In this document: positions 51,800-62,274 of the stretch, piece after piece | How positions within the stretch are numbered: position 1 is the stretch's first letter | Layout: each line of letters opens with the position of its first letter | DNA from: Escherichia coli | GTDB lineage: Bacteria; Pseudomonadota; Gammaproteobacteria; Enterobacterales; Enterobacteriaceae | Direction: 5' to 3' (one strand) | Length of the DNA stretch: 64,000 nucleotides | NCBI RefSeq assembly: GCF_024223415.1 | Contig: NZ_CP100501.1 | Translations under genes and position numbers: made by a program | Notes under the pieces: model-generated | Databases searched by the model: none | The model's input: the letters and a program-made list of their open reading frames with translations, nothing else | Told to the model about the DNA's origin: nothing

Positions 51800-52059
51800 A
51801 AAGCCGTATTCGCGGTTCAGTCAAGGGGGAGCTGGTGCATCCATCTGTGGAAGATAGAGCACCAAACTCATAGAGGCCACGTTCTCAGGCCAGAACAGTC
51901 TTATATCTCTGGCGCTGACAACCCATAGTACTTGCCTGGATGGGAAACTCTTCTTGTGCTGAGCGTAAGAGCCATCTGCCGGAACGCTTCCTCGCCAGTT
52001 CGCTCGCTACGCACAGTTACATGGCTGCGGCGAGGGCTGCCTGATTCTAATAATGATAT

Positions 52060-52390
52060 TTCAGCATGATAGCAGCAATAAAATAGATTGCAGCTATCAT
52101 GCTGTACACATACGGCCTAGCGCTCTGCTTATGTTATGCTATCTGCAATCTTGCGGCAATCTTGCTTCATCTGTCGATGCGATTCTGAATGAGGTTTCTT
52201 TTATTGTTAACGTGACACAAGTATTCGGCTGTCAATTCCAGCACTCTGCTAAGTAGCAAGATTTAATCTTGCTACTAGATTTTTTATTGTTGCAATCTTG
52301 CTGCAAGCTGTTATCTTGTTCTGGAAGAGTTACTCTACCTAACCTCAATCTGGTTTATATTGATGTTTGCTGCAAGATAGCAGCAAGTAA
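52060..52390. promoter_or_regulatory. Centromere-like repeat array upstream of parA (GCAATCTTGC / GCAAGAT palindromic units)
   Basis: Multiple ATCTTGC..GCAAGAT units in the promoter region; similar units recur at 53410-53480. Confidence 0.55.
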
Positions 52391-52400
52391 AGGGGGCTAA

Positions 52401-53033
52401 ATGGCCTGGATAGTTGGTTTTATTTCTCAGAAAGGTGGTGTGGGCAAAAGCACTAAAGCGAGAGCGTTAGCGCGTGAAGCATCCGCCTGTGGTATCAAAA
52501 CAAAATTAGCTGATCTCGACTTGGAACAGGCAACGAGTGCTGAGTGGCATCGTAGACGTCTGTCAGCTGGTTTGTCACCGGTTGCTTCAGTTGAAGTGTT
52601 TTCAACAGCAAAGCAGGCGATAGAATCTGCCGGCGATTTTGACCTTCTGATTCTTGATGGCCCTGCTCGTGCAAGTAAAGGTACTTCAGAAATTGCTAAG
52701 GTCGCCGACCTTATCGTCCAGCCAACGGGGGCCTCCCTTGACGATCTTGTCCCGGCAATTAAAGTTTTCAACGCGTTGGTAAAAGAAGGTATACCACGTT
52801 CAAAACTGGTCTTCGCTTTAAGCCGGGTAGGTACCGAAGCGGAAGAGCTGGATGCTCGTGCATATATCAGTGAAGCAGGTTATGAAACTTTATCTGGATG
52901 CCTTTTTGAGAAGCCAGCATACAGAAAAGCGATGAATTCAGGACTCGCTGTGACAGAAACACGTTATAAAGGTTTAAACGAGAGAGCTGATGAACTTATC
53001 CAGGCACTCATCGATAAGATTGGAGAAGAGTAA
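52401..53033 (+). CDS. parA: ParA-family partition ATPase (small, type Ib)
   Basis: Deviant Walker A SQKGGVGKST; 210 aa. Confidence 0.85.
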   Translation: MAWIVGFISQKGGVGKSTKARALAREASACGIKTKLADLDLEQATSAEWHRRRLSAGLSPVASVEVFSTAKQAIESAGDFDLLILDGPARASKGTSEIAKVADLIVQPTGASLDDLVPAIKVFNALVKEGIPRSKLVFALSRVGTEAEELDARAYISEAGYETLSGCLFEKPAYRKAMNSGLAVTETRYKGLNERADELIQALIDKIGEE

Positions 53034-53407
53034 TGGCTGATGCGTCAAAACTTAGAACTAAAAGAACCCGTAGTGGGTTGGGGGTACCCCCGGGCCCCGA
53101 CGAAGTGGCTACCAGCTTGAATGCGCCTGAGATAGCTCCGGCTGTCGCTGCCACTGATGTTCAGAGACAACAGGCAGACTCATCGCCAGTGCACCATGAG
53201 CCTGTGGTTACGCAAACTGTGACCGAGGTATATACCCGCCGCGATGGCCGTTCTGCCAGAAAAACAAACAGGACGCTGGCATTTGCAACACGTGTCACAC
53301 CTGCTTTCGACCAAGAGATCCGGGATATCGCAGAGCGTGAGGGGTTGAAACTGGTGGAAGTTCTGGAAAAAGCAGTTGAGGCATATAAGGAAAAACAGGG
53401 CTATTAA
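53033..53407 (+). CDS. Partition centromere-binding protein (ParG/ParB-like partner of ParA)
   Basis: 124 aa, immediately downstream of and overlapping parA; basic N-terminus. Confidence 0.55.
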   Translation: MADASKLRTKRTRSGLGVPPGPDEVATSLNAPEIAPAVAATDVQRQQADSSPVHHEPVVTQTVTEVYTRRDGRSARKTNRTLAFATRVTPAFDQEIRDIAEREGLKLVEVLEKAVEAYKEKQGY

Positions 53408-53409
53408 TC

Positions 53410-53620
53410 CGGGATGCAGCAATCTTGCTGCATTCTTTTTTTGTGTGCAATCTTGCAGCAAGATTTATGCTAGATAAATGCTAGATTGCTGCAAGATAAA
53501 TGATATAATGCTCAAATTGAGTAGTTAACTGCCCCAGGTAAGTACGCAGCTTGAGTACTTACCTGTGGTTTATGAACGTATTTACTTAATGTGAGTAGTT
53601 ATTGGGTGAAGATTAATACT
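53410..53620. promoter_or_regulatory. Second repeat array (GCAATCTTGC units followed by TGAGTA-containing repeats) upstream of parM/stbA
   Basis: Direct and inverted repeats CTCAAATTGAGTA / CTTGAGTACTTAC / TGTGAGTAGTT / ACTCAAATTGAGTAT. Confidence 0.5.
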
Positions 53621-53645
53621 CAAATTGAGTATAAATGGAGATGGT

Positions 53646-54620
53646 ATGAGAATTTTTTGCGATGATGGTTCTACAAATGTGAAACTTGCCTGGTTTGAAG
53701 GCAAGACGCTGAAAAGTGCGGTATCAGTGAACTCTTTTCGCCATAACTGGAAAGTCGAGGGCTTAGGCAGCAGTCGTACCTATAACTATTTGCTTGATGG
53801 CCGTAAATATACCTACGACCCGGTCAGCGAAGATGCGATCAGCACGACTCATATTGAGTATCAGTACTCTGATACAAATGTGTTGGCAGTTCACCACGCA
53901 TTACTGAACAGTGGAATTGAACCCCAGGAGATCGATCTCACCGTTACGTTACCTATCAGCGAGTTTTACACGGCCGACTGCCAGAAAAATACGCTTAACA
54001 TTGAGAGAAAAATTCGCAACCTGATGCGGGAAGTCACCCTGAACAAAGGGGGAACTTTTACCATTAAAAGCGTTGAAGTGATGCCTGAATCACTCCCGGC
54101 TGTATTTACTCGCCTAGTTGCTGACAATGTTGGTCAGTACGAAAAATCATTGGTTATCGATCTCGGTGGTACAACTCTGGATGTCGGGGTTATTGTTGGC
54201 CAGTTTGAGGATGTTTCGGCTGTACATGGTAATCCTGATATTGGTGTATCAATGGTCACGAAAGCCACGCTCACTGCACTGAAAATGGCCAGCAGTGATA
54301 CCAGTCCAATGATTGCTGACGAGTTGATCAAAAACAGGAAGAACCTGGATTTTGTGGGGCAGGTTGTAAATGAGGTTTCTAAACTAAATCTGGTGCTGGA
54401 TACCATTGATACAGCGATAAATAAACTGGGCGAGCTAGTTGTTGATGATTTGCTGCAGTATCGAAACGTAAACCGCGTATATATTGTCGGAGGCGGGGCT
54501 GCACTCATTGCTGATGCTGTTCGTAAGGCATGGAACCACCTTGGCGAAAAGGTGGTTCTTATGGATGAACCTCAGACAGCGCTGGTCCAGGCTATTGCAC
54601 GCTTCAAAGCGGAGGAGTAA
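53646..54620 (+). CDS. stbA: Actin-like partition ATPase ParM/StbA (type II)
   Basis: N-terminal DDGSTNVK phosphate-1 motif, DLGGTTLD, YIVGGGA motifs of actin/ParM fold. Confidence 0.85.
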   Translation: MRIFCDDGSTNVKLAWFEGKTLKSAVSVNSFRHNWKVEGLGSSRTYNYLLDGRKYTYDPVSEDAISTTHIEYQYSDTNVLAVHHALLNSGIEPQEIDLTVTLPISEFYTADCQKNTLNIERKIRNLMREVTLNKGGTFTIKSVEVMPESLPAVFTRLVADNVGQYEKSLVIDLGGTTLDVGVIVGQFEDVSAVHGNPDIGVSMVTKATLTALKMASSDTSPMIADELIKNRKNLDFVGQVVNEVSKLNLVLDTIDTAINKLGELVVDDLLQYRNVNRVYIVGGGAALIADAVRKAWNHLGEKVVLMDEPQTALVQAIARFKAEE

Positions 54621-54623
54621 TCG

Positions 54624-55016
54624 ATGTACGACGGCGAAGAAAGGAAAAAACTTTCACTCTACCTTCACCCGGAGGACTCTGCCGATTGTCTTGCACTGGC
54701 TGAAATCGAAACTGTTCCCCGGAAAAAACGGGGGGAGTTATATCGGCAGGCTTTGATAACCGGCCTGATAATGCATCAGCTTGATGAGAGAATTCCCGCC
54801 GTGTTAACCGCGCTATTCACCAGAGAACTGAATGCGGATGAGGTCATTAGTCAGATTGCCAGGATAACAGGCTGGAAACCCTCCTCCGGTGATTTAAAAG
54901 AGGTACTGAAGGCGTTGGGAGGGCTTCAGAGTACAGTTTCACCAGAACTCTCTCAGGATGACGGTGAACAGGCCCGTCTGAAAGCGGCTAGGGTGAAGAT
55001 GCAAAAGCTAATCTAA
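54624..55016 (+). CDS. stbB: ParR/StbB partition adaptor
   Basis: 130 aa downstream of parM; operon context. Confidence 0.7.
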   Translation: MYDGEERKKLSLYLHPEDSADCLALAEIETVPRKKRGELYRQALITGLIMHQLDERIPAVLTALFTRELNADEVISQIARITGWKPSSGDLKEVLKALGGLQSTVSPELSQDDGEQARLKAARVKMQKLI

Positions 55017-55672
55017 AAAAGTCTCGCTCCGTGAAACCTGCAAAATTTCTCGGGGTGTGCGGCTTAATTTTTAGATTTCCGCGTTTCCCGTCATTTGAGT
55101 CAATGGAGTGCTGGTTGACAGCTCCCTGCTCTGAAGGACGGGGATTCCCACATATGCAGCCAGATTTCCGGCTAGTGTGGTTTCAGACGTTGTTCGATTT
55201 CATTCTGTAGCGCCTGAAGTGTGCCTGATTTGAGGTTTTTTGTGCTCTGGCGGTCGAAAAGAATTTCAATGCGGATCATGTTCTCATCTCCCTTTTATTT
55301 TACTGTGTATATATACAGTATTCTAATAACTGAATCCACACACAGTCAAATGTCATTGTTGTGACTAAAAAACGCTCAATTCTCTGAGAGTGTGGCTGTA
55401 TGCCTGCTGTGGACTGCTGTGTCCAGCTTATCCACAGCATTTTGTGCACGGTTCTGTGGACAAAATACCTGGTTACCCAGGCCGTGCCGGCACGTTAACC
55501 GGGCTGCATCCGATGCAAGTGTGTCGCTGTCGCCGGCCTTCTCACCCGGTCACGTTTCGTCGTTCCTCCTCCACGAGCTGCGGCTTCGGGGCCGCACCTG
55601 CATTCGTATGCGGTCGCCCGGTTACAGGTGCGGCACGGCCTGATGGAGGCCGCATGTGAGAGGAGAATTCCC

Positions 55673-56599
55673 ATGCCAAACTGGTGCTCAAATCGTATGT
55701 ATTTTTCTGGTGAACCGGCACAGATTGCTGAGATTAAACGACTGGCCAGCGGTGCAGTCACACCGTTTTATCGCCGCGCCACAAATGAAGGTATTCAGCT
55801 GTTTCTGGCCGGAAGTGCCGGACTTCTGCAGACCACTGAAGATGTGCGGTTTGAACCATGTCCCGGACTGACGGCTGCCGGACGTGGCGTTGTATCGCCG
55901 GAGAATATCGCGTTCACCCGCTGGCTGACATACCTGCAGGACGGTGTACTGCTGGATGAGCAAAACTGCCTGATGCTGCATGAACTCTGGCTGCAGAGCG
56001 GTACTGGACAGCGTCGCTGGGAAGGATTACCGGACGATGTCAGGGATACCATCACCGCACTTTTCACCGCAAAAAGAGGTGACTGGTGTGGCTTCTGGAG
56101 TAACGAAGATGTATCGGTGTGGTGGAACCGTCTGTGTGACAACGTACTGCCGGAAAAAACCATGCCGTTTGACCTGCTGACGGTTCTGCCCACCCGCCTG
56201 GATGTTGAAGTGAATGGCTTTAACGGTGGTGTTCTGAACGGTGTTCCTTCTGCATATCACTGGTATACGGAACGGTATGGCGTGAAGTGGCCTGTGGGGT
56301 ATGAGGTGAATATCAGTAATCAGGGAGACAACTTCATTAAGGTGGATTTCGACACGCCGTGGTGTCAGCCGGAAAGCGACGTTATTGCAGAATTAAGCCG
56401 CCGTTTCAGCTGCACGCTGGAGCACTGGTATGCCGAACAGGGCTGTGATTTCTGTGGCTGGCAGTTGTATGAGCGCGGAGAGCTCGTTGATGTGCTGTGG
56501 GGGGAACTGGAATGGTCTTCCCCGACAGATGACGATGAGCTGCCGGAAGTCACCGGACCTGCGTGGATAGTCGACAATGTGGCGCATTATGGCGGATGA
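55673..56599 (+). CDS. Leading-region hypothetical protein (308 aa)
   Basis: GAGGAG RBS; Cys/Trp-rich; no confident family assignment. Confidence 0.55.
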   Translation: MPNWCSNRMYFSGEPAQIAEIKRLASGAVTPFYRRATNEGIQLFLAGSAGLLQTTEDVRFEPCPGLTAAGRGVVSPENIAFTRWLTYLQDGVLLDEQNCLMLHELWLQSGTGQRRWEGLPDDVRDTITALFTAKRGDWCGFWSNEDVSVWWNRLCDNVLPEKTMPFDLLTVLPTRLDVEVNGFNGGVLNGVPSAYHWYTERYGVKWPVGYEVNISNQGDNFIKVDFDTPWCQPESDVIAELSRRFSCTLEHWYAEQGCDFCGWQLYERGELVDVLWGELEWSSPTDDDELPEVTGPAWIVDNVAHYGG

Positions 56600-56981
56600 A
56601 GTATGACGGAGACGGGCGGGCAACTGCCCGTTTCTTTTCCGGTAAAGGATGTCGCCATGCTCCTCTTTTTACTGCGCCGGCTGACGCGGCGCGGCATAAA
56701 CGCTGCCTGTGGTCAGTGTCCCGCGTCCGGTGGGCACGGGACGGGCGCTTTTACCGCTCCCGGCTGGCGTCGGTGACAGTGTACGCCAGCCTGTCGCCCT
56801 TTTCTGATGAACGCCCTTCAAGCCGCTTTCGCGGCATAACCTTGCCGTCAAACAGACGACGGCTGCGGTATTCCACGGTCGGCCTGACCCGTTACCGGAC
56901 GCGGTGAACAGCCCACAGGCAGCGGGGAACGGGCACCACAGGGGTGCCCTCCCGGTGCCCCCTGTAAGAGAAGGAGCTGTT

Positions 56982-57665
56982 ATGTCCCGTTTTATCCTGG
57001 GTGACTGCGTGCGTGTTATGGCCACGATTCCTGATAACGCCATTGATTTCATATTAACCGATCCGCCATATCTCGTCGGTTTCCGTGACCGTTCCGGGCG
57101 CACCATTGCCGGTGACGTTAATGATGACTGGCTGCAACCGGCCTGTAATGAGATGTACCGCGTACTCAAAAAAGACGCGCTGATGGTCAGCTTCTACGGC
57201 TGGCACCGTATTGACCGCTTTATGGCGGCCTGGAAACGCGCCGGATTCAGCGTGGTTGGCCACCTGGTCTTCACCAAAAACTACACATCCAAATCTGCGT
57301 ATGTCGCGTACCGCCACGAATGCGCTTACATCCTGGCAAAGGGCAGTCCGGCCCGGCCCCGTAACCCGCTGCCGGATGTGCTGGGCTGGAAATATTCGGG
57401 CAACCGCCATCACCCGACGGAAAAGCCCGTTACCAGCCTGCAACCGCTGATTGAGAGCTTCACACATCCGAACGCGATTGTGCTGGATCCGTTTGCAGGC
57501 AGCGGTTCAACCTGCGTGGCCGCCCTTCAGTCCGGACGCCGGTATATCGGTATCGAGCTGCTTGAACAGTATCACCGTGCCGGACAGCAACGACTGGCCG
57601 CCGTGCAACGGGCCATGCAGCAGGGGGCCGCGAATGATAACTGGTTTATGCCGGAGGCTGCGTAA
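56982..57665 (+). CDS. Orphan N6-adenine DNA methyltransferase
   Basis: DPPY catalytic motif (ILTDPPYLVGF) and FxGxG AdoMet motif (LDPFAGSGST); AAGGAG RBS; no adjacent restriction enzyme gene. Confidence 0.85.
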   Translation: MSRFILGDCVRVMATIPDNAIDFILTDPPYLVGFRDRSGRTIAGDVNDDWLQPACNEMYRVLKKDALMVSFYGWHRIDRFMAAWKRAGFSVVGHLVFTKNYTSKSAYVAYRHECAYILAKGSPARPRNPLPDVLGWKYSGNRHHPTEKPVTSLQPLIESFTHPNAIVLDPFAGSGSTCVAALQSGRRYIGIELLEQYHRAGQQRLAAVQRAMQQGAANDNWFMPEAA

Positions 57666-57887
57666 ATGAACTATGCCGGACACGAAAAACTTCGCGCCGA
57701 CGTGGCGGAGGTGGCCAATGCCATGTGCGACCTGCGTACAACCATGAATGAGATGGAGCGGCGGTACAGCTTTAATGCTGACACCCTGCCGGAACGTCTG
57801 GTGCGTCAGACGTTGTTTCGCGCAAACCGCCTCCTGATGGAGGCATATACCGAAATTCTGGAACTGGATTCCTGCTTCAAAGATTGA
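57666..57887 (+). CDS. Hypothetical small protein (73 aa)
   Basis: ORF starting directly after the methyltransferase stop. Confidence 0.45.
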   Translation: MNYAGHEKLRADVAEVANAMCDLRTTMNEMERRYSFNADTLPERLVRQTLFRANRLLMEAYTEILELDSCFKD

Positions 57888-57900
57888 GAAGGAGACGAGA

Positions 57901-58335
57901 ATGTACGGAACATGCGAAACGCTATGCCGGGCGCTGGCAGCAAAGTATCCGGGAGATACGCCGCTGATGCTGGTTATCTGGTCCCCGGAAGAAATTCAGG
58001 CCCTCGCTGACGGAATGGATATTTCCCTGTCCGATCATGAAATCAGGACTGTCCTGGCGCGGCTGGCGGACATCCCGGAAGACCAGCGGACTGAGTCCGG
58101 TATTTCTTCCGGCGTGGCGATGGAGATTATCAGCAACGTGAGCGAAAACCGCCAGGTGACCGTCCCGGCTGAACTGCTGGCGTCCCTGATTCAGACCGCC
58201 GAACAGGCACTGTGGAAACGTGAATGGGCCGCCCGTGATTACGGCCTCGCCGTCCCGGAATGCGTCACCCGCCGTCAGGCGGTGGTTAATCAGGCCCGCA
58301 TCCTGCTGAAAAACAACCCACACGAAAACGACTGA
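57901..58335 (+). CDS. Leading-region protein, paralog of 60037-60456 (DUF1380-like)
   Basis: Shared motifs with 60037-60456 (..LSD.E..TV..RL.D.. and ..VTVPA.LL..). Confidence 0.6.
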   Translation: MYGTCETLCRALAAKYPGDTPLMLVIWSPEEIQALADGMDISLSDHEIRTVLARLADIPEDQRTESGISSGVAMEIISNVSENRQVTVPAELLASLIQTAEQALWKREWAARDYGLAVPECVTRRQAVVNQARILLKNNPHEND

Positions 58336-58379
58336 TGTTATCGCCGCCTTCGGGCGGCGATTCAGGGAGACCATGAATC

Positions 58380-59150
58380 ATGAACAAAACGCTGAATGCA
58401 CTGGTTTGTCACCACGCCCGTAACCTGCTGCTGGCGCAGGGCTGGCCGGAAGAGACGGATGTTGACCAGCGTAACCCGAAGTATCCGGGCTGGATCAGCA
58501 TTTATGTTCTGCTGGATGCGCCCCGGCTGGCGACGTTACTTATCAACCGTCACGGCGGCGTACTGCCGCCGCTCCTGGCCTCCGCCATTCACAAACTGAC
58601 CGGAACCGGGGCGGAAGTTGTACTGTCCGGCAGTCAGTGGCAGTCGCTGCCGGTACTTCCGGCAGACGGAACGCAGGTGTCTTTCCCGTATGCCGGAGAA
58701 TGGCTGACCGAAGACGAAATCAGGGCAGTTCTTGATGCAGTGCGCGATGCGGTACGCAGTGTCAGTTGCCGGGTGACAGAAGATGCGCGGCGTATCAGGG
58801 CGGCGCTGACCACAACCGGTCAGACGTTGCTGACCCGCCAGACGCGGCGCTTTCGCCTGGTTGTGAAGGAAAGCGATCACCCCTGCTGGCTCGATGAAGA
58901 CGACGAAAACCTGCCCGTGGTGCTCGATGCCATCCTGAACCGGGGCGCTCGTTTTTCTTCGGTGGAAATGTATCTGGTCAGTGAGTGTGTGGAGCATATC
59001 CTGTCCAGTGGGCTGGCCTGCGATGTGCTGCGTATACCGGATGAACCGCCCCGCCGGTGGTTTGACCGTGGTGTTCTGCGGGAGGTGGTCCGGGAAGCCC
59101 GGGCCGAAATCCGCAGCATGGCGGATGCCCTGGCAAAAATCCGGAAATGA
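58380..59150 (+). CDS. Leading-region hypothetical protein (256 aa)
   Basis: ORF with RBS; preceded by hairpin TCGCCGCC-TTCG-GGCGGCGA. Confidence 0.5.
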
Positions 59151-59564
59151 TGACGCTGGCGGGGAAAAATCTCCGCCTTTTCCAGCCGGTCCCCGGAAAG
59201 AGCAAAAGGATGTCGCCGCAGGCTCCGCTTTACTCGGCCATGCGGGGCATGGCCTTGTGGGTTTTCAGTTATGTGGCCTCAGCGTCGTGTGCGGGCTGTG
59301 CCGTGCCTCCATCGTAGCCGGGCTTCTGCGGGCGGGTTGCAAGGTAAGGTGAACCGCTGCGGTCACCCGGTCCCTCCTTCCCGTCTGCCGTGATTTTCCG
59401 GTCGTTCACCCGCTCAGATTTCGCGGTCTCACCCTCCAACTCCCGCCAGCCGTGTGCGTCAGGCTGCGGCTTCCCTTGCGCCCTTGCAACCCTGCAGGCC
59501 CGGCAAAGATGGAGGCACGGCACCGCCCGGTGTCGCGGAATATGTGAACAACGGAGGAAATCCC

Positions 59565-59990
59565 ATGCAGTATGCGAAACCTGTCACCCTGAACGTTGAA
59601 GAGTGCGACCGCCTTTCTTTTCTGCCTTACCTGTTTGGCAACGATTTTCTGTATGCCGAGGCGTATGTGTACGCGCTGGCGCAAAAAATGATGCCGGAAT
59701 ATCAGGGAGGCTTCTGGCATTTCATCCGCCTGCCGGACGGTGGCGGTTACATGATGCCGGATGGCGACCGTTTTCATCTGGTCAACGGTGAAAACTGGTT
59801 TGACCGCACTGTGAGTGCTGATGCCGCAGGCATCATTGTTACGTCTCTTGTGATTAACCGCCAGTTGTGGCTGTACCACGACAGCGGGGATGCGGGACTG
59901 ACACACCTGTACCGGATGCGTGATGCGCAGTTGTGGCGTCACATCGAATTTCACCCCGAATGCAACGCGATTTACGCGGCACTGGACTGA
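59565..59990 (+). CDS. klcA: Antirestriction protein KlcA/ArdB family
   Basis: Similarity to remembered KlcA (..GG.W.F...NGG.YM.PD.D..WHL.NG.N....S..AAGI..) ; GGAGGA RBS. Confidence 0.8.
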   Translation: MQYAKPVTLNVEECDRLSFLPYLFGNDFLYAEAYVYALAQKMMPEYQGGFWHFIRLPDGGGYMMPDGDRFHLVNGENWFDRTVSADAAGIIVTSLVINRQLWLYHDSGDAGLTHLYRMRDAQLWRHIEFHPECNAIYAALD

Positions 59991-60036
59991 TTAACGGACG
60001 GGGCGGCAATGCCGCCCCTGTAAAGGAGACGAGAAC

Positions 60037-60456
60037 ATGTACTGTACTGTTAAAGAAATTATCCGCGAAGTGCTGAATACAGACGTGCCGGACAGTGAAT
60101 GTGTTTTTGCCGTGGTGCTGACCCGCGGGGATGTGCGCCACATAGCCCGGGACTGGAACCTGTCAGACGATGAGCTGGAAACCGTCATGCAGCGGCTGGA
60201 CGATGCTTTTGTATATGGCGCATGTGACAGAGTTGTTTCCGATATTGTCAATGAACTGATGGAGGAAAAGCGCGTAAACCGTCTTGTAACAGTTCCTGCG
60301 GTGCTGCTGGAAAAAGTGATGGTGATGGCTGGTAGTGAAATTTATCGCCTCCATGCTGTAGGGAGCGAGAACGGGGGCGACGGTGACGCATTTGTCAGGG
60401 AAGAACGTGAGATTATGCGGGTAATGCGTCAGGCGCTGGACGGGGAGAACGGGTAA
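60037..60456 (+). CDS. Leading-region protein, paralog of 57901-58335 (DUF1380-like)
   Basis: See 57901-58335. Confidence 0.6.
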   Translation: MYCTVKEIIREVLNTDVPDSECVFAVVLTRGDVRHIARDWNLSDDELETVMQRLDDAFVYGACDRVVSDIVNELMEEKRVNRLVTVPAVLLEKVMVMAGSEIYRLHAVGSENGGDGDAFVREEREIMRVMRQALDGENG

Positions 60457-60647
60457 TGAATATCAGCACGGAAACCCGCGAAATTCTGCGTAATTACAGG
60501 GCCGTGATTAATGCGCGGCGTCGTGAAATGGGGCAGAAACCGCTCACCACCGCGCAGATTGTTGATGAAATCTGTGATTTTGTGGCGAATCAGCAGGCGG
60601 TTTTCCTCGGTGGTCACTATATCCTTCAGGGCAGCAGGCACAGGTGA
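60456..60647 (+). CDS. Hypothetical small protein (63 aa)
   Basis: ORF overlapping the previous stop (ATGA). Confidence 0.4.
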   Translation: MNISTETREILRNYRAVINARRREMGQKPLTTAQIVDEICDFVANQQAVFLGGHYILQGSRHR

Positions 60648-60649
60648 TA

Positions 60650-61390
60650 CAGGGGCAGGCGGTGGAGGCCGCCTGTCAGCCCGCGCGAAAACCCCTGGCA
60701 GGCTGGCGCCTGCCGGAAGGGATGCGGGCCACGCTGGCGCGTCGCCCGTTACCCTTCCTGTTGGTGACAGGCGTTGTTTCAGGAAGTACCTGTTACAGAC
60801 CTGTCGTTAAAGAACCTTCTTACACATGCGCCCCTTCGGCTCCCGGCTGCCTGGCGGCATCCGGTCGTCAGGCCCGACTCCGACAGGCAGCTGCTGGCGC
60901 ACCCGCCAGTCTCCGCCGAACCCGCTGGCGCGGTTTCGGGCTGTCGCTACGGTCCGATGCGTGAAAACCCGGGCTTGCAGCGACCGTTCCGGTCGCGCCG
61001 CCTCTGTCGCGCCGTGACCTGCGCTCCCTGCACACCTGACGGTGTGTGAGGAAACTGCGCCTGATGGCGCAGCAGTCCTCCCTCCTGCCGCCACCTCTGC
61101 GGCCTGTTTCCCGCTGTGGACTTTCCGGGGGGCAGACGTAACCCCCTCCCGTTCCATCTGTCCAGGGTGAGATGCACCGGCCACAAAATTTTTAGCCATG
61201 AACCCGGCAAAAAATTTTGCGTCCGCCCCCGGACAGCTGCCCCGTGAGGCGGTAAACGGGCCCCCATCGGAAAGGTCCACTGCGGGGAGAAACCCCTGTG
61301 AAGTGGACGGCAGGAGGAGCTTTCGCTCCTCTGAAGGGGCACATGAACGTCCCGTCGCCGGTATCCGGTTTATCTCACATCTTTCAGTCA
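60650..61390 (+). promoter_or_regulatory. GC-rich structured non-coding region upstream of ssb (candidate ssi/Frpo-type single-strand promoter)
   Basis: About 740 bp without a credible ORF, many inverted repeats, directly 5' of plasmid ssb as in IncF leading regions. Confidence 0.45.
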
Positions 61391-61400
61391 GGAGGTTCTT

Positions 61401-61922
61401 ATGAGTGCACGTGGTATCAACAAGGTCATCCTCGTCGGGCGTCTGGGCAATGATCCGGAAGTCTGTTACATCCCCAACGGGGGCGCAGTGGCAAACCTGC
61501 AGGTCGCCACGTCAGAAAGCTGGCGCGACAAACAGACGGGGGAGATGCGGGAGCAGACGGAATGGCACCGCGTGGTGCTGTTCGGCAAGCTCGCGGAAGT
61601 GGCTGGTGAATATCTGCGCAAGGGCGCGCAGGTCTACATCGAGGGGCAACTCCGTACCCGTAGCTGGGAGGATAACGGTATCACCCGTTACGTCACTGAA
61701 ATTCTTGTTAAGACCACGGGCACCATGCAGATGCTGGGGAGTGCACCACAGCAGAACGCTCAGGCGCAACCGAAGCCTCAGCAGAATGGGCAGCCACAGA
61801 GTGCTGACGCGACGAAAAAAGGTGGCGCGAAAACGAAAGGCCGTGGACGTAAGGCCGCGCAGCCGGAGCCTCAGCAGCCGTCTGAACCCGCGTATGACTT
61901 CGATGACGACATTCCGTTCTAA
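61401..61922 (+). CDS. ssb: Plasmid single-stranded DNA-binding protein
   Basis: OB-fold N-terminus ([14 protein letters not shown]..), Gln/Pro-rich linker, acidic tail [17 protein letters not shown]. Confidence 0.95.
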
Positions 61923-61977
61923 CGAAAGACAGTGACAACCGCCCCGTCCAGTGCGGGGCATCACCGGAGAGATGAGG

Positions 61978-62211
61978 ATGAGCGAATATTTCAGAATACT
62001 TCAGGGACTGCCTGACGGTCCTTTTACCCGCAAACATGCCGAAGCCGTTGCCGCACAGTACCGGAATGTCTTTATCGAGGATGATCAGGGAACGCATTTT
62101 CGCCTGGTTGTCCGCAATAACAGTGGCCTGGTCTGGCGTACCTGGAATTTTGAGGACGGTGCCGGGTACTGGATGAACCATGCCATCCGTGATTTCGGCA
62201 TTCTTAAGTAA
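61978..62211 (+). CDS. Hypothetical small protein downstream of ssb
   Basis: 77 aa starting MSEYFRILQ; conserved position between ssb and ParB-like gene. Confidence 0.5.
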
Positions 62212-62274
62212 GAGAGGTGCCGGACGGGAACGCGTCCGGCAGACATACAACCATCCCGGTCAAAGGAGAAATAT

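Follow-up and report, generated by a model that had tools for sequence, protein, structure and literature searches.

A near-exact copy of the ColIb-P9 Frpo3/ssi3 element upstream of ssb in the leading region of a conjugative plasmid

Organization of the leading region and of the gap before ssb

The window analyzed here, the whole 64,000-nucleotide stretch of Escherichia coli contig NZ_CP100501.1 (assembly GCF_024223415.1), carries the leading region of an enterobacterial conjugative plasmid, which is collinear with the leading region of F. Its leading-region genes all lie on the plus strand and, based on Pfam matches, encode a DUF1281 protein, an N6/N4 DNA methylase, two DUF1380 proteins, a KlcA/ArdB-type antirestriction protein, SSB and a DUF905 protein, with parM/stbA located upstream of them. 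The F leading region has the same gene order and continues via psiB and hok to oriT and traM. The following genes and leader are referred to below.

ATG at 55673, plus strand: DUF1281 gene (Pfam DUF1281, 1.1e-49)
3′ of the hairpin at 59292-59529, plus strand: klcA/ardB-like antirestriction gene (Antirestrict Pfam match)
61335-61400, plus strand: ssb leader, with the ribosome-binding site AGGAGG at 61390-61395 as read from the sequence
61401-61922, plus strand: ssb (Pfam SSB, 3.8e-36), first gene of the operon that the predicted class-1 promoter would serve
61978-62211, plus strand: DUF905 (yfjA-like) gene, after ssb (Pfam DUF905, 3e-33)

By collinearity with F and with IncI plasmids, oriT, itself outside the window, is expected to lie to the right. 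Since transfer runs 5′ to 3′ from oriT, the transferred strand (T-strand) would be the minus strand, which is the template of all the leading genes. Such a placement of the template on the transferred strand has been described for F and for IncI plasmids (Couturier et al. 2023; Samuel et al. 2024). The region is a mosaic, since the element upstream of ssb is close to that of ColIb-P9, whereas other, individual leading-region segments are 88-96% identical to F by BLAST. The best match for the gap upstream of ssb is an IncK2/Z plasmid, and the gap is closest to IncI-complex plasmids.

This gap extends over 753 bp (60648-61400), from the stop codon of a 63-aa open reading frame (60647) to the ATG of ssb (61401). 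Its GC content is 0.60-0.70 in 200-bp windows across 60600-61400, compared to ~0.53 just upstream. We folded the gap, its two halves and two coding controls as single-stranded DNA, with z-scores calculated relative to dinucleotide-preserving shuffles.

60648-61400, minus strand: whole gap, −224.6 kcal/mol, z = −8.2
60648-61400, plus strand: whole gap, −204.1 kcal/mol, z = −8.6
61004-61345, minus strand: 3′ half, −105.8 kcal/mol, z = −10.1
61004-61345, plus strand: 3′ half, −90.5 kcal/mol, z = −8.0
60648-61003, minus strand: 5′ half, −104.8 kcal/mol, z = −5.9
ssb, 342 nt, minus strand: coding control, −50.0 kcal/mol, z = −0.6
58500-58841, 342 nt, minus strand: coding control, −71.3 kcal/mol, z = −1.8

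Judging by these z-scores, the structure of the gap is real and well beyond chance. The original prediction, of about 740 bp of GC-rich, structured, non-coding DNA immediately before ssb, was thus borne out (z = −8 to −10), and the secondary-structure prediction that it had suggested for the transferred strand does give a stable hairpin, in the 3′ half. Conservation, folds and alignments divide the gap, up to the ssb leader, into the following parts.

60648-60771, no strand assigned: GC-rich hairpin cluster directly after the stop codon of the 63-aa open reading frame (minimum-energy and centroid folds)
60772-60835, no strand assigned: variable spacer (alignments, the F sequence and L002)
60836-61014, no strand assigned: conserved structured module of ~170-180 bp (conservation and folds), consisting of module A (60836 to ~60960, a multi-hairpin domain) and module B (60976-61014)
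61004-61334, minus strand: predicted class-1 single-strand DNA promoter (homology to ColIb-P9 Frpo3/ssi3)

A sequence scan of 60400-61450 found no sigma-70 consensus site in duplex form on either strand, which fits an element with no activity as duplex DNA. Three weak terminator-like sites were found in a terminator scan, none of them convincing.

The element at 61004-61334

Read along the minus strand, 61334 to 61004 matches Frpo3 of ColIb-P9 (AJ238399.1:11381-11711) over its full length with 99.4% identity (~329 of 331 nt by BLAST). The element is 86.9% identical to Frpo2 and 80.4% identical to Frpo1, the other copies in ColIb-P9. Frpo1 and Frpo2 of F align to it by BLAST only in a core of ~80 nt, at 77-80% identity, and fall into the same family in a multiple alignment. 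As BLAST queries against the window, ssiD and ssiE of F gave no match at E ≤ 1e-3, and no ssiE-type signals were found in the window. Based on these comparisons, 61004-61334 is very probably a class-1 single-strand DNA promoter of the Frpo/ssi family, and is essentially the ssi3/Frpo3 allele of ColIb-P9. The suggestion that the gap before ssb may be an Frpo/ssi element therefore holds for its 3′ half and not for its 5′ half; ~330 of the 740 bp flagged make up the promoter element. The kinship to F Frpo that had been suspected is also seen, in the shared core.

Related elements have been characterized in several studies. Samuel et al. 2024 (Nature, Suppl. Table 2) list five known Frpo/ssi sequences, with ColIb-P9 Frpo3 among them, and found that a 287-nt fragment of F Frpo2 driving acrIIA4 protects a plasmid only when carried on the leading-region T-strand. 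The F element upstream of ssbF was named Frpo2 by Couturier et al. 2023, and its deletion abolishes early Ssb and YfjA in transconjugants. Wen et al. 2025 assign ssi1-3 and Frpo1/2 to class 1 and mapped the transcription starts of ssi1-3 in the IncI1 plasmid pESBL by 5′ RACE. Transcripts from such elements prime conversion to double-stranded DNA, according to the literature on F. It is from experiments on these near-identical or homologous elements that we attribute early activity to the promoter in the window. Because the element is a near-exact copy of a characterized one, its finding was already known and adds no new principle.

The predicted fold of the 3′ half and the promoter motifs that we assign to it are as follows.

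61081-61317, minus strand: long imperfect hairpin of ~237 nt (minimum-energy fold, −105.8 kcal/mol)
61078-61046 and 61044-61023, minus strand: pair of small hairpins that separates the long hairpin from module B (fold)
61186 to 61181, minus strand: putative −35, TTGTGG, on the 3′, non-template arm
61164 to 61159, minus strand: putative −10-like TGGACA, on the 3′, non-template arm

The long hairpin consists, on the minus strand, of a 5′ arm (61317 to 61206), an apical loop (61205-61198) and a 3′ arm (61197 to 61081). Beside the loop, the 3′ arm carries the A/T-rich, UP-like tract AAAAATTTT (61193 to 61185), TTGTGG, a 16-nt spacer that contains the bulged GTGCATCTCA, and TGGACA. In the predicted fold the partners of TTGTGG and TGGACA on the gene-proximal arm are 61217-61221 and 61230-61235. 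The motif AAAAdTTTTGyGG-N15-17-TGGACw is kept in all class-1 copies examined. TGGACA agrees with TATAAT in only 2 of 6 positions and has no A at −11, and the class-1 spacer is 15-17 nt long depending on the homologue, with ~8-10 nt of it bulged. Because of this poor −10 and the variable, partly bulged spacer, both the assignment of the hexamers and the RNA start that it predicts, near 61241-61247 on the plus strand, are uncertain. Two other placements were considered and rejected. A −10 inside the bulge (CATCTC) would lie only 4-6 nt from the sole plausible −35, and a promoter on the gene-proximal arm pointing to the loop would have no conserved hexamers there.

That the minus strand is the folded species of the class-1 element is supported in several ways. 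Across 61004-61345 the fold of the T-strand is 15 kcal/mol more stable than that of its complement. Compensatory changes were found in 19 of 37 consensus pairs among nine members of the class-1 family, and in these nine members several conserved G-T pairs on the minus strand become A-C mismatches on the plus strand.

We propose that the T-strand, on arriving single-stranded, would fold into the ~237-nt hairpin seen in silico. The arm far from ssb would then serve as the non-template strand of a sigma-70 promoter directed from the loop to the base, and topology would make the arm next to ssb the template. Host RNA polymerase would start at the predicted position and transcribe ssb, yfjA, yfjB and psiB. 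As described for homologues, the hairpin would be lost and the promoter switched off once the complementary strand is made, and the transcript from the hairpin may also prime synthesis of that strand.

Two alternatives share the same hairpin and assign it another role. The structure could act as an RNA element of ssb (a long structured 5′ leader, a riboregulator or a small RNA). In favor of this, the fold of the plus strand is stable as well (z = −8.0), a start at the predicted position would place ~155 nt of the gene-proximal arm within the ssb leader, and the few wobble pairs of module A are U-G on the plus strand. Yet it is the minus strand that is the more stable and that retains the conserved G-T pairs, and the scan of 60400-61450 revealed no upstream double-strand promoter able to transcribe the whole hairpin. 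A permissive Rfam scan of 52000-64000 gave no significant match; a hit to Erse at 56747-56942, outside the flagged gap, scored 19.6 bits against a threshold of 138 and was taken as chance. Since published genetics also place promoter function in this element (Couturier et al. 2023; Samuel et al. 2024; Wen et al. 2025), we consider an RNA role highly unlikely. No more probable, in our estimate, is that the element is mainly a single-strand initiation site priming complementary-strand synthesis, with expression secondary. Frpo (ssiD) was in fact originally isolated as a signal for single-strand initiation, and in vitro its RNA serves as a primer for DNA synthesis (as reviewed); early in vivo conversion near psiA and ygeB is rifampicin-sensitive in the literature on F. 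Priming is nonetheless compatible with a promoter, since one transcription event serves both. Moreover, early ssb and yfjA expression is lost on deletion of Frpo2 (Couturier et al. 2023), and the element is oriented and placed as a promoter would be, immediately before an operon whose ribosome-binding site is strong.

The 5′ half of the gap and its conserved module

The promoter does not include the 5′ half of the gap (60648-61003). The fold energies of this half are alike on the two strands (−104.8 vs −103.1 kcal/mol) and do not discriminate between them. The hairpin cluster with which it begins consists of h1 (60656-60675), h2 (~60696-60713), h3 (60714-60758) and h4 (60757-60771), and this stretch (60648-60771) is 96% identical to F (L001 9831-9957). 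Together with the T-rich tail CGTTGTTTCA, h4 forms a weak terminator-like site, and the klcA operon may end in this cluster or be weakly terminated by it. The spacer that follows has as its counterparts a CT-rich repeat in F, (CCTGTT)n in Citrobacter plasmids and a group II intron in one Klebsiella plasmid.

The gap could instead encode a small protein, for example one of the annotated open reading frames 60644-60964 on the plus strand or 60807-61280 on the minus strand. Frames of 91-157 aa are open on both strands, and RefSeq and GenBank records annotate hypothetical proteins over homologous stretches. However, long open reading frames are expected by chance in DNA of 65-70% GC, and the annotated frames differ in strand and position from plasmid to plasmid. 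None of seven open reading frames of the gap has a match in NCBIfam. Substitutions relative to paralogous copies are spread evenly over the codon positions (17/18/19 and 22/19/20) and are accompanied by 1- and 2-nt indels. In F, part of the stretch is replaced by the CT-rich repeat mentioned above, and in a Klebsiella plasmid the group II intron lies there. A protein product is thus extremely improbable. The original prediction of no credible open reading frame in the gap agrees with both the NCBIfam result and the lack of codon-position bias. Before ssb we find a conserved hairpin-promoter structure and no conserved coding gene.

The module at 60836-61014 is better conserved than the promoters that it accompanies. 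At least 5000 plasmid records carry it with 95-100% identity, and 60836-60935 shows no substitutions relative to copies whose hairpins differ by 10-15%. Module B is a block of ~39 nt, TGCAGCGACCGTTCCGGTCGCGCCGCCyCTGTCGCGCCG, that is nearly invariant across all types. It contains the hairpin GCGACCG-TTC-CGGTCGC (60980-60996) and extends over the final 11 nt of Frpo3 as published. Module A occurs in at least three alternative versions, and the type found in the window shows compensatory changes.

The module always lies immediately upstream of class-1 promoters, of both subtypes. In IncI-complex plasmids it precedes the class-1 hairpins upstream of ssb and downstream of ardA (ssi3 and ssi2), in F the module B part precedes both Frpo2 and Frpo1, and in a Klebsiella plasmid the module precedes an F-type Frpo belonging to another operon. 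The module is missing from the working Frpo2-acrIIA4 construct and is thus dispensable for the promoter. A scan of species-representative genomes for module B yielded 11 loci, too few for a firm test of covariation or strand; in this sample module A has few wobble pairs, and these are U-G on the plus strand, which weakly hints that module A folds in the plus strand or in RNA. The module could be an insulator or terminator at operon boundaries on single-stranded templates, a site of priming or replication control, or a protein-binding site. Our tentative proposal, which we hold as possible and rather doubtful, is that 60836-61014 is a distinct, undescribed functional element and that the hairpin at 55478-55642, described below, is an uncounted fifth single-strand promoter of F-like plasmids.

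Other hairpins and comparison with known elements

The window contains three more hairpins of single-strand-promoter type, whose classes follow Wen et al. 2025.

55478-55642, minus strand: short class-2-related hairpin, 30 nt upstream of the DUF1281 start (inverted repeat, fold, alignment)
55518 to 55513, minus strand: putative −35, TTGCAT, on the 3′ arm of the transferred strand
55497 to 55492, minus strand: putative −10, TAACGT, with bases 55495 and 55494 unpaired in the single-sequence fold
56701-56924, minus strand: hairpin in the class-3 position (M.EcoGIX-type, ssp3), upstream of the DNA methylase gene
59292-59529, minus strand: full-length class-2 hairpin (ssp2), upstream of the klcA/ardB-like antirestriction gene

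Two of these, at 56701-56924 and 59292-59529, belong to further published types that were absent from the original prediction. The hairpin at 56701-56924 has 31-nt arms that are 84% complementary (z = −5.8 on the minus strand) and is 95% identical to the F region upstream of the F methylase; its sequence is unrelated to the gap upstream of ssb. The arms of the hairpin at 59292-59529 are 32 nt long and 91% complementary (z = −4.8). It carries the −35 TTGCAA (59342 to 59337) and the −10 TACGAT (59316 to 59311), and is 78.8% identical to the candidate Frpo'4 of Samuel et al. and 88% identical to F (L001 8340-8760).

A shorter region at 55400-55670 had been flagged as similar to the gap before ssb and as a second possible Frpo-type element. 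It does contain real structure, an imperfect inverted repeat (55478-55504 and 55616-55642, with arms 81% complementary) whose minus-strand fold has z = −4.0. BLAST found no similarity of 55478-55642 to the ssb-upstream gap, and the two are alike in kind only. Nor is it a homologue of Frpo; its kin are the class-2 single-strand promoters, of which it is a short relative (alignment A1). It aligns with 59292-59529 and with the candidates Frpo'4, Frpo*1 and Frpo*3 of Samuel et al., with 67 invariant columns, and the arms of the two window hairpins (I7 and I8) show 75% similarity. The kinship to class 2 is distant, given that there is no match at the BLAST level. Among these five aligned elements compensatory changes were found in 21 of 54 pairs, and all five have TTGnnn and TAnnnT on the gene-distal arm, with the −11 A unpaired in the consensus fold. 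The spacer of TTGCAT-N15-TAACGT, at 15 nt, is short for sigma-70.

Class-2 (ssp2) elements share with 55478-55642 the hairpin and the blocks GCCGTG, CGGGC, GAAGCCGCA, CGGGTGA, CTTG, GCCCGG-TAnnnT and CACGG. They differ in that 55478-55642, as well as Frpo*1 and Frpo*3, lacks an internal segment of ~80 nt present in full-length class 2, and in that class-2 elements precede antirestriction genes (klcA/ardB, ardA), whereas 55478-55642 precedes the DUF1281 gene. The hairpin is 96% identical to F (L001 4580-4883) and was found in 4427 plasmid records; among the 30 matches listed, none has an annotated feature under it. By analogy with these elements, 55478-55642 probably belongs with class 2 and works for the DUF1281 gene by the mechanism proposed for the class-1 promoter. 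Counting against its activity, F has been described in recent work as having four single-strand-promoter operons, and not all leading genes are induced (Wen et al. 2025). In the single-strand-promoter literature consulted, we found neither a published promoter at this position nor expression data for the DUF1281 gene.

Single-strand promoters allow SSB, SOS inhibitors and anti-restriction functions to be expressed within minutes of entry, before the second strand is made, and are thus central to the spread of resistance plasmids. The practical value of the present analysis lies in annotation, as such elements are rarely annotated in public records, where spurious hypothetical proteins are called across the gap upstream of ssb. 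The loose ends are only two, the conserved module beside class-1 promoters and the hairpin upstream of DUF1281, and both are minor. The former is a cheap, testable lead on the conversion of the leading region to double-stranded DNA.

Among known systems, ssi3/Frpo3 of ColIb-P9 (IncI1) is the closest to the element in the window, with the same strand and the same long T-strand hairpin, and differs from it by about two substitutions. IncI-complex plasmids (L003, L004) carry the element in the same place, upstream of ssb. Frpo2 of F (ssp1b) resembles it in position, in orientation and in the downstream operon of ssb, yfjA, yfjB and psiB. Both Frpo2 and Frpo1 (ssiD, ssp1a) of F share with it the core CTGTCCGGGGG...GCAAAAnTTTTT-loop-AAAAAnTTTTGyGG...CCCTGGAC and have module B directly upstream. 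However, the lower stem and flanking hairpins of the F elements are of other sequence, including two small hairpins analogous to those in the window, and F has a different module A and the CT-rich insertion.

Hairpins upstream of leading-region genes

The hairpin at 55478-55642, 5' of the DUF1281 gene, resembles class 2 of the published single-strand promoters and is 96% identical to its counterpart in the F plasmid. It was found in 4427 plasmid records, and in the 30 matches listed, none had an annotated feature beneath it. Since recent work credits F with only four single-strand-promoter operons, this hairpin may be an uncounted fifth single-strand promoter of F-like leading regions.

In addition to the regions named in the original prediction, two other large hairpins were observed on the transferred strand:

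59292-59529, minus strand: class-2 (ssp2) hairpin upstream of a klcA/ardB-like gene, 78.8% identical to Frpo'4 of Samuel et al. 2024
56701-56924, minus strand: class-3 (ssp3) hairpin upstream of a DNA methylase gene, 95% identical to F

The class-3 hairpin is overlapped by a weak Rfam hit on the minus strand (56747-56942) to the small RNA Erse. With 19.6 bits (E = 0.04), this hit falls short of the threshold of 138 and is probably due to chance.

When ORFs are called mechanically, the longest ones for the DUF1281 gene and the antirestriction gene begin at GTG codons located within hairpin arms; the stretches concerned are 55628-55672 and 59454-59562, respectively. For the former, the true start codon is probably ATG 55673 (MPNWCSN...), and for the latter the ATG near 59565 (MQYAKP...), both of which match the annotation in related plasmids.

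A conserved module and its variable spacer

A structured module at 60836-61014 shows 95-100% conservation across at least 5000 plasmids, more than the class-1 promoter hairpin itself. In every case it lies directly 5' of a class-1 promoter, of either subtype. Within the module, a stretch of ~39 nt that holds the hairpin GCGACCG-TTC-CGGTCGC is almost invariant.

The spacer preceding this module (about 60768-60835) appears to be a hotspot for both insertions and slippage. In the Klebsiella pneumoniae plasmid pBSI055-KPC2, a group II intron (ltrA; 242-2500 of that locus) is inserted precisely in the equivalent spacer, with the hairpin cluster that follows the ORF on one side and the conserved module on the other. 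The same spacer carries a CT-rich repeat in F and (CCTGTT)n repeats in Citrobacter plasmids.

A leading-region module of enterobacterial plasmids was also found on contigs assigned to Gram-positive genomes: Streptomyces morookaense (contig139) and metagenome-assembled genomes of Oscillibacter and Erysipelotrichaceae. Its upstream flank is identical to that of the Klebsiella plasmid in the Streptomyces and Erysipelotrichaceae contigs, and is F-like in the Oscillibacter contig. These occurrences most likely reflect contamination during assembly or binning.

Probable mosaic origin of the promoter upstream of ssb

Sequence comparison suggests that the class-1 promoter cassette upstream of ssb (61004-61334) was swapped between plasmid lineages, with the conserved module seemingly serving as the exchange point. 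At 99.4% identity, this promoter belongs to the ColIb/IncI type, whereas the segments flanking it, compared across 53600-64000, are 88-96% identical to F. Frpo2 of F, by comparison, matches this promoter at only 77-80%, and in the core only.
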